From NCBI GenBank assembly GCA_031459625.1, contig JAVKIH010000005.1:33952-97951 (forward strand): 64,000 bases of DNA. The letters run 5' to 3'. This DNA comes from Candidatus Geohabitans tengchongensis (GTDB lineage: Bacteria; Sysuimicrobiota; Sysuimicrobiia; Sysuimicrobiales; Humicultoraceae). A program made the translations under genes and the position numbers. This document shows positions 9,184 through 9,746 of this stretch, one piece after another. Position 1 is the stretch's first letter; each line of letters begins with the position of its first letter. Below the pieces are notes generated by a model. That model saw only the letters and a list, made by a program, of their open reading frames with translations. It made no database searches and was not told the DNA's origin.

Positions 9184-9211
9184 TTGACATCCCCCTTGCC
9201 GGGGCTATAAT
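9184..9211 (+). promoter_or_regulatory. Consensus sigma70 promoter of the 23S-5S operon
   Basis: TTGACA (9184-9189), 16 nt spacer, TATAAT (9206-9211). Confidence 0.88.
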
Positions 9212-9239
9212 GGGCGGTGCAGTACGAAGGAGGGGTTGG

Positions 9240-9257
9240 GTGTACCAGAGCGGCTAA
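9240..9257 (+). CDS. Putative leader peptide (uORF) MYQSG in the 23S leader
   Basis: AAGGAGG (9227-9233), 6 nt spacer, GTG TAC CAG AGC GGC TAA. Confidence 0.55.
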   Translation: MYQSG

Positions 9258-9287
9258 AACCGCATACGGTGCATCGGATGACCGTCC

Positions 9288-9314
9288 GAGGGGATGAGGT
9301 CATCCCCTCTTTTT
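9288..9314 (+). terminator. Intrinsic terminator/attenuator inside the 23S leader
   Basis: gaggggatg-aggt-catcccctc hairpin immediately followed by TTTTT. Confidence 0.75.
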
Positions 9315-9746
9315 GTGCCTGTACTGCGGGTCGGCCCCGGCGGCCGGCTCAACCGGGCGACGAGCCCGGGTCCGGACCTGGCGCTCCTGCCACGGCGGCA
9401 GGGTCGCGGGGCAGGGCCCTGGACCTCGCGGGTCTGGATGGCGTACCTTGACAACTGCATAGGGAAGACACCTGTAGCAGCAGGCCAGACCTGCCGCGCC
9501 GGGCGAGGTGTACCGGCGCGACCGATGTTACAGGCTCTGTACAGCTGCTCCTAAGGCGGGTGTTCAAGCTACTAAGGGCGCACGGTGGATGCCCTGGCGC
9601 CAGGGGCCGATGAAGGACGCTGCCGGCGGCGAAAGGACCGGGGAGGTGCCTAGCAACCTTCGATCCGGTCGTCTCCGAATGGGGCAACCCCCGGCGGGTC
9701 ATACCGCCGGATCCCGCGCTGAATCCATAGGTGCGGGAGGGCCAGT

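Follow-up and report, generated by a model that had tools for sequence, protein, structure and literature searches.

The stretch of DNA considered here, referred to as the window, comprises 64,000 nucleotides from Candidatus Geohabitans tengchongensis (contig JAVKIH010000005.1, positions 33,952 to 97,951), and its ribosomal RNA (rRNA) genes do not form one operon. The 16S gene lies apart from the 23S and 5S genes, and the gap of ~5.7 kb between 16S and 23S contains several long open reading frames (ORFs), with Pfam matches in two of the three that were scanned. The subject of this analysis is the leader of the unlinked 23S-5S operon, in which a candidate transcription attenuator joins a Shine-Dalgarno-like sequence (SD), a mini-ORF, an intrinsic-terminator-like hairpin, and strands that can pair instead into an antiterminator. 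The leader follows a sigma-70-type promoter (Table 1), the sole promoter-like site in 1500-15000, a range in which shuffled sequences gave 1.2 ± 1.4 sites at a looser 9-of-12 threshold, and transcription probably starts at about 9217-9219.

An earlier, sequence-only reading of this DNA had listed the parts of such a device, and all of them are present where it had placed them, including the SD with its short ORF and the terminator ahead of mature 23S. The terminator (GAGGGGATGAGGTCATCCCCTC, 9288-9309) is a 9-bp G+C hairpin with a loop of 4 nucleotides (nt), and is followed by T5, the end of which lies 248 nt before the 23S start (9562). Upstream of it, GGTGTACC pairs with GGTGCATC as helix P1a of hairpin P1, G-U pairs included, and in doing so hides the start codon. 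The predicted helix between GGATGACC (9276-9283) and GGTCATCC (9298-9305) is an exact complement in the window and covaries in relatives; the terminator and this antiterminator cannot coexist because the antiterminator loop contains the 5' strand of the terminator, which no linker follows.

The SD has three partners: the 3' end of 16S rRNA (...CACCTCCTTTCT), GUCC in the terminator state, and CCCCUCUU (9304-9311) in the read-through state. The last of these, together with the helix P0 formed by GCAGTAC and GTACTGC, bears out the proposed pairing of the SD region with a downstream segment. The pairing with GUCC(C) had been overlooked, and with it the SD is paired in both conformers. A further helix, ACGGT (9266-9270) with ACCGT (9281-9285), had been thought to capture a strand and free the terminator; it is present in the window, and was rejected since relatives keep only 3-4 complementary bases there. 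As a whole, the RNA from 9218 to 9330 folds at -56.3 kcal/mol, compared to -38.2 ± 3.8 kcal/mol for its shuffles (z -4.78, with 0 of 200 as good). The terminator scan is by itself not significant (12 sites versus 7.8 ± 3.2 in shuffles), and a search of Rfam with E up to 10 gave no match to the leader, only the 23S start and one chance hit.

Table 1. Features of the 23S-5S leader and of the rRNA genes in the window.
Feature	Position	Strand	Remarks
16S gene	2319-3863	+	
Sigma-70-type promoter, TTGACA-16-TATAAT	9184-9211	+	TTGACA 9184-9189, TATAAT 9206-9211; 12/12, spacer 16
P0 5' strand, GCAGUAC	9219-9225	+	pairs with 9321-9327; forms only in read-through RNA
Shine-Dalgarno-like sequence, AAGGAGG	9227-9233	+	
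Hairpin P1	9239-9275	+	P1a 9239-9246 with 9268-9275; P1b GCGG 9250-9253 with CCGC 9260-9263
Mini-ORF, GUG UAC CAG AGC GGC UAA (MYQSG*)	9240-9257	+	GUG at P1 base, stop in P1 apical loop
Antiterminator 5' strand, GGAUGACC	9276-9283	+	pairs with 9298-9305
GUCC	9284-9287	+	pairs with SD (terminator state) or GGGGA of terminator 5' strand (antiterminator state)
Intrinsic-terminator-like hairpin and U-run	9288-9314	+	9288-9296 with 9301-9309, loop 9297-9300, U-run 9310-9314
Antiterminator 3' strand, GGUCAUCC	9298-9305	+	overlaps terminator loop and 3' strand
P0 3' strand, GUACUGC	9321-9327	+	
boxA-like motif, CCTTGACAACTGCATAGGGAAGACA	9446-9470	+	132 nt 3' of the switch
23S rRNA gene	9562-14078	+	downstream of the leader; group-I-intron-like insert near 3' end
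5S gene	14303-14419	+	

The leader was searched as DNA in 41 genomes, the window's own and 40 related ones, and the conserved part proved to be 9228-9321 only, at 75-93% identity between flanks that cannot be aligned, and always 140-260 nt ahead of a 23S start. A covariance model (CM) built on the seven closest copies, termed R1, matches 33 of the 94 genomes of the order. Its matches fall in the window's family (24 of 33 genomes, plus the window's own) and in a sister family (8 of 22), while five other families have none (0/23, 0/12, 0/1, 0/1, and 0/1). Within the two families the misses are mostly assembly gaps: in the window's family, the 23S 5' end is missing from the assemblies of all five non-matching genomes that were tested, and in the sister family, where five were likewise tested, three show a 23S start, two of these carrying the element when read directly and the third being an odd contig.

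The families without R1 matches offer a view of the linked state. Five genomes from three of them were searched, and a 23S start was found in three genomes, one from each sister family (L140, L141, and L142, from genomes G028, G030, and G077). All three have a linked 16S-spacer-23S arrangement, without the element, and their spacers carry the same AACCTTGACAAC boxA-like motif as both leaders of the window. Judged from these genomes, the element appears to go with unlinked operons, in the two families whose linkage was lost, and, as the three linked genomes lack it, it would have arisen with the operon split.

To this set, a pattern scan of public genomes added 78 stretches, of which 23 were accepted (20 by a context filter and L046, L096, and L101 by reading) and the remainder showed no context marks, and a scan of metagenomes added 56, of which 49 parse as promoter plus element. 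In total, 70 distinct copies were available, 68 of them without N, from the two sister families and from metagenomes; the unpublished genome G018 supplies one row (L010), and nothing depends on that row alone. The related public contigs are labelled Armatimonadota/CSP1-3, Candidatus Fervidifonticultor, and Ca. Calidihabitans, names that are in use in the accessible part of PMC11604079. Every copy has a consensus promoter ahead of it and, behind it, the boxA of an unlinked 23S operon, and a TTGACA-N16-18-TATAAT-like site is found 5' of the element in the parsed copies.

Two observations belong to this comparison without entering the argument. In run X10, a related strain differs from the window over 9091-9773 by 7 bases and a 5-nt insert, none of them within 9214-9419, in a sample too small to mean much. 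A different leader, L204 (G051:C256, about 1043-1560), comes from a contig binned with a sister-family genome, and its 23S is only 76% identical to that of the window; it may belong to another organism. Its sequence is unrelated to the element and its layout is alike, with a TTGACG-17-TATACT promoter-like site, a candidate 21-codon ORF, a G+C hairpin followed by T6 (-18.1 kcal/mol), and a boxA-like motif 75 nt past the hairpin and T6.

The position of the element relative to the signals around it bears on what it could do. The motif at 9446-9470, which we take to be boxA on the strength of known consensus sequences, is found 18-133 nt past the U-run in 62 of 70 copies, the remaining copies being cut off or carrying ATTGACAA, and in some of them the gap is as short as 18-23 nt. 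The switch itself holds no boxA motif. A second promoter that drives 23S from beyond the terminator would have deprived the device of its role, and none of the 70 copies has a promoter-like site 3' of the terminator; a candidate that used the TTGACA of boxA as its -35 was discarded, as no -10 follows boxA in any group. Since no copy has a promoter after the terminator, all 23S-5S transcription must pass the hairpin, and it must do so ahead of the antitermination signal.

The 16S leader is simpler, with a promoter near 2144, ~45 nt, and then the same boxA-like motif (about 2210-2229). In agreement with the sequence-only reading, it has no equivalent of the element: it holds no hairpin with T-run, and R1 gives one match in the window and one in the genome. 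About 85 nt past the 16S 3' end, a strong terminator-like hairpin (3948-3976, 13 pairs) with a weak T-tail is consistent with 16S as its own transcription unit.

Regarding the terminator, the hairpin is predicted at -9.2 to -19.2 kcal/mol in all 47 distinct versions, and U5-U7 follows it directly in nearly all copies, the exceptions being L146 (U4) and L203 (an interrupted run). Its helix has 92.7% of the cells paired and 7 of 9 pairs changed on both sides, a count inflated by one-base register shifts in an alignment that was fitted to the helix. The antiterminator was assessed in alignment A5, made with a model that does not contain this helix. There, the 7-bp core GAUGAGC:GCUCAUC is paired in 84.3% of the cells and shows 10 compensatory cells, of which eight rows change A-U to G-C and two rows, the window and a near twin, change G-C to C-G; a third compensatory change, C-G to U-A, occurs in one distinct strand pair. 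The covariation score was matched in none of 500 shuffles, and sliding the partner strand lowered pairing to at most 53%. Moreover, many relatives have a terminator stem of 7-8 bp, which leaves the antiterminator 3' strand in a loop of 7-12 nt, and yet the strand is conserved, which would be difficult to account for if the antiterminator were not in use. MAFFT followed by RNAalifold on 21 leaders recovered only 5 pairs, all of them from the antiterminator, in an alignment out of register elsewhere. In the CM alignments A4 and A5 the 5' half is unreliable for distant groups, and P1 and the SD helices were assessed by anchor-based scripts instead.

The two folds are built from four short strands, two G-rich (the SD, GGAGGG, and the terminator 5' strand, GAGGGGA) and two C-rich (GUCC(C) and the terminator 3' strand, UCCCCUC). 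In the terminator fold, the SD pairs with GUCC and the two terminator strands with each other; in the read-through fold, the SD pairs with the terminator 3' strand and GUCC with the terminator 5' strand, in addition to the antiterminator. The copy L127 has both its SD (GGAGGU) and its GUCC segment (CUCCC) altered, with pairing retained, and GGAG is kept in all contexts except for one lineage with GGGGGG (L163/L180). P0, which closes the read-through form, averages -14.1 kcal/mol for cognate strands, -11.2 for non-cognate, and -9.2 for shuffled ones over 62 distinct pairs, and is weak in one genus-type (L144, L165, L187, L198, L202, and L022). The device as first described withstood the comparison with relatives: the SD and the terminator are conserved, the short ORF in the window's family, and the antiterminator covaries. 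On this comparative evidence, a switch of the attenuator type is probably real.

The mini-ORF was surveyed in 47 distinct SD-ORF contexts. In 34 of these, a GUG placed 5-7 nt past GGAGG opens an in-frame ORF that runs to a stop, with a length of 5 codons in 11 contexts, 6 in 10, 7 in five, 10 in one, and 11 in seven. The stops are UAA (30), UGA (3), and UAG (1). The ORF overlaps the strand that decides between the folds: P1 has the GUG at its base and, in its tip, the stop, from which 20-23 nt lead to the antiterminator strand. The GUG is constant in the 34 contexts, while the two bases before it, the one after it, and the P1 strand with which it pairs all vary. Length changes in P1 are confined to the coding (5') strand, where they come in multiples of three, and the 3' side has a constant length. 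If the 4 length changes and the 4 stop changes are taken as independent, simple null models give our estimates of roughly 0.01 and 0.002, and, because the ORF had been predicted beforehand by the sequence-only reading, the frame test is not post hoc in the window's family.

The encoded peptides differ from each other (MYQSG, MRSQSSG, MQQLSG, MLEPRVQLSG, and others), having only their last codons in common, and these lie within stem P1b. Among these leader peptides there is neither a run of regulatory codons nor a conserved arrest peptide, and, since their sequences vary, it is only through being translated that the ORF could matter. P1 itself varies by 18 nt in length and also in sequence, with no invariant junction bases, unlike a ligand pocket; the marks of a riboswitch, that is, a conserved core with invariant unpaired bases or a match to an Rfam class, were not found.

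We tentatively read the element as a transcription attenuator of the unlinked 23S-5S operon, placed in the operon's leader, with ribosome loading on the nascent leader as its likeliest input. Transcription would start about 8 nt before a strong SD. In one fold, P1 would be extended by the SD:GUCC pairing, and the terminator hairpin with its U-run would form. In the other, GAUGAGC:GCUCAUC would trap the terminator 5' strand in its loop, with the SD paired to the terminator 3' strand. Without a ribosome, the CCCCUC beside the U-run is paired in both folds, and for this reason most transcripts should stop. A 30S subunit or a 70S ribosome on the SD and mini-ORF would open P1 from its base, at the GUG, to its tip, at the stop codon; this opening would free the antiterminator strand and withhold the SD, leaving CCCCUC unpaired and letting the polymerase proceed to boxA and 23S.

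Termination itself, translation of the ORF, the direction of the switch, and its purpose are what we infer from these features. As to direction, we lean mildly toward occupancy promoting read-through over the reverse. Such a response would tie 23S-5S output to the supply of small subunits ready for initiation, and would restore the coupling lost at the operon split; it fits an origin of the device at that split because 23S output would follow 30S supply. In seven test sequences, the antiterminator hairpin was the minimum-energy fold in all seven once its 3' strand had emerged, and, after CCCCUC had emerged, five switched to the terminator while two kept the antiterminator, with the SD closing on CCCCUC.

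Several points weigh against this reading. The energies give no direction, since the antiterminator minus the terminator is -1.9 ± 5.7 kcal/mol for the free RNA and -1.1 ± 4.2 with the SD-ORF masked, and the terminator is favoured in 26 of 59 sequences, masked or not, with 9 of 68 sequences unparsed and some terminator registers possibly off. As the SD and GUG are paired in both folds, loading must be co-transcriptional. Terminator hairpins with 7-bp stems and 9-12-nt loops may be weak, and a cell pays a price for a gate that is off by default on the only promoter of its 23S. The frame argument draws on about 4-5 independent length changes (roughly p 0.01). The start codon raises a difficulty of its own, for 13 of the 47 contexts have no AUG, GUG, or UUG, and show an in-frame AUC (11) or CUG (2) instead: two copies from one genus, L018 and L195, carry GCG, with an in-frame CUG, where their relative L013 has GUG, and in the sister family an in-frame AUC is found 7-8 nt past GGAGG in 13 of 13 sequences, with ORFs of 6 or 7 codons. 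As a start codon AUC is very poor, and base pairing with the antiterminator strand, through its GAU, could also account for the invariance of AUC; translation in the sister family is doubtful. The conservation of the SD could stem from its two pairing partners alone, and the URA in the loop could be structural, although the UAG in L176 argues otherwise. As for transcripts, the metatranscriptome X4 yields a single 4.3-kb contig, unbroken from 3 kb upstream through the leader, which may be DNA and shows no start, end, or level of a transcript, and X20 holds conserved 23S parts only.

The claim of a ribosome-sensing attenuator, as first put forward, is upheld in part. The attenuator architecture is supported, and in the window's family so is the ribosome as sensor, through the conservation of frame and stop; the sister family, with AUC in 13 of 13 sequences, has no canonical start. 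That the ribosome is the sensor of the switch is, on the sequence comparisons, a serious possibility that falls a little short of probable.

The same pair of folds could serve another input: a protein, such as a free large-subunit protein or an assembly factor, the speed of the polymerase or its nucleoside triphosphate supply, (p)ppGpp or another ligand, or temperature. In that case the resemblance to an SD and an ORF would be a side effect of the switch requiring G-rich and C-rich strands, an explanation that we regard as rather unlikely. It would account for the SD, whose complementarity to two switch segments could be enough alone to keep it, and for a sister family without a canonical start, given that GUG and AUC both lie within paired strands; folds that are near-isoenergetic would also suit a kinetic or thermal switch in a hot-spring lineage. 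It fits poorly with a GUG that is invariant though its pairing partner varies, with ORF lengths that are always multiples of three, with stops that vary among the three stop codons only, and with an SD-GUG spacing fixed at 5-7 nt. A ligand would be expected to leave aptamer-like invariant unpaired bases or an Rfam match, and neither is seen. A ribosomal-protein site finds no support in similarity to the cell's own rRNA, for a word comparison with its 16S, 23S, and 5S gave only chance-level words of 7-13 nt in common; descent from the 16S 3' end (the anti-SD) and mimicry of an rRNA site likewise found no support in these words.

Two other explanations dispense with the switch. According to one, the leader is a structured domain that is always read through and serves the folding, 5' protection, RNase processing, or factor loading of pre-23S, its hairpin and U-run being a pause or structural module. 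P0, which joins the 5' end to sequence past the U-run, covaries, and exists only in read-through RNA, speaks for this, as does the possibly poor termination by long-loop hairpins, and a part in folding and processing is known for rRNA leaders (accessible part of PMC10250234). We nevertheless hold it improbable, in view of two mutually exclusive helices that are both conserved, the antiterminator covarying, and an unbroken U5-U7 right after a G+C stem in nearly all copies; in addition, P0 is weak in one genus-type, and the 16S leader of the same genomes does without any such domain. According to the other, the promoter makes a trans-acting small RNA of about 95 nt, and 23S is transcribed by leak-through. 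A perfect promoter, a compact fold, and a terminator would be in keeping with this, and there is a precedent for a trans-acting attenuator RNA (accessible part of PMC6614838). It is very improbable all the same, as the element is never away from a 23S start in the genomes searched, with one match per genome and two in G037 (the second confirmed only as far as the boxA-like motif downstream), the leader promoter is the sole 23S promoter, and the conservation of P0 concerns the read-through form.

Returning to a switch that senses ribosome loading, its restriction to split operons invites an evolutionary reading, which remains unlikely by our own estimate. The lineage would have evolved a gate on the new 23S-5S unit at the split, such that passage needs a loaded small subunit, and hence 16S rRNA; 30S supply would then set the synthesis of 50S RNA, and the subunits would be balanced without co-transcription. 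According to the accessible part of 10.1101/705046, transcription from a single promoter is believed to hold the amounts of 16S, 23S, and 5S in stoichiometric balance, and how separated genes manage is a question. The presence of the device in exactly the two families with lost linkage would turn this into a testable hypothesis on subunit balance with unlinked rRNA genes, for which the SD, the GUG, the stop, and both antiterminator strands are defined targets for mutation.

The surroundings of the leader show further features. In many relatives (L003-L007, L011, L014, L016-L018, and L022), the gene that ends just 5' of the 23S promoter encodes a similar C-terminus (...DTLTCLVV*), unlike the ORF in this place in the window (7650-9050, no Pfam match); since the upstream gene differs in the window, the promoter and leader have moved or persisted independently of it. 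Within the 23S gene, the match to the large-subunit rRNA (LSU) model reaches 14078 by local search (model positions 2178-2912), where a first Rfam pass had ended at 13097. In the added region, 13097-14078, Pfam identifies a LAGLIDADG endonuclease domain (E 9.8e-22) in an ORF (13157-13708, + strand), and a group I intron model matches weakly at 13576-13740 (27.8 bits, under the gathering score). The insert in the 23S 3' region looks like an intron with a homing endonuclease, and the gene holds further extra sequence relative to the LSU model. ARAGORN reports an 81-nt tRNA-Pro (CGG) at 38010-38090, which the Rfam tRNA model did not report at its gathering score.

Among known systems, the closest in design are the ribosome-mediated (leader-peptide) transcription attenuators of amino-acid and pyrimidine operons (trp, his, leu, thr; pyrBI). 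As in these, a short ORF with an SD lies close to the promoter in the 23S leader, an antiterminator overlaps the intrinsic terminator, and the first strand of the first hairpin is taken up by the ORF, whose stop is at a fixed distance from the next strand. The differences are that the target here is an rRNA operon and not an mRNA, that the peptide is unconserved and has no run of regulatory codons, that the ORF of 5-11 codons always starts with GUG where the start is canonical (34 contexts), and that the switch uses the SD as one of its strands. Leader ORFs that sense antibiotics and precede resistance genes (erm, vmlR, and yxjB), as described in the accessible parts of PMC9226507 and PMC6851288, are likewise very short, their occupancy picks terminator or antiterminator, and 23S rRNA is involved there too. 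Unlike the 23S leader, they sense a drug-stalled ribosome and control a protein gene, whereas here the product is an rRNA and no stalling peptide is conserved.

Leaders of rRNA operons have a device of their own, the boxB-boxA-boxC antitermination leader with Nus factors, S4, and SuhB (accessible parts of PMC10250234 and PMC6614801). The element shares this location, and a boxA-like motif stands in the same leader; in contrast to that device, it is a terminator and not a Nus loading site, and it is absent from the 16S leader. As it lies upstream of boxA, the antitermination complex cannot protect the polymerase at the switch. In the leader of the S10 ribosomal-protein operon, L4-mediated attenuation uses a protein as the sensor, and the mRNA leader mimics rRNA. 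There too, a terminator in the leader links the synthesis of a ribosome component to the state of ribosome assembly; the 23S leader differs in that no rRNA mimicry was found in it, its similarities being chance-level words.

The sequence-only reading knew of no such device in an rRNA leader, and searches of open-access literature, including the accessible parts of 10.1101/705046, PMC2965389, and PMC11604079, yielded no report of an attenuator or a leader ORF in this place. Mechanisms of this class are known, and what would be new is the application to an rRNA operon, where the SD serves as one of the switch strands. The prevailing view is that rRNA synthesis is regulated at its promoters and shielded from termination. 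If the reading is correct, an rRNA leader that carries a conserved terminator switch and a translated mini-ORF would add a new layer to the control of ribosome synthesis.

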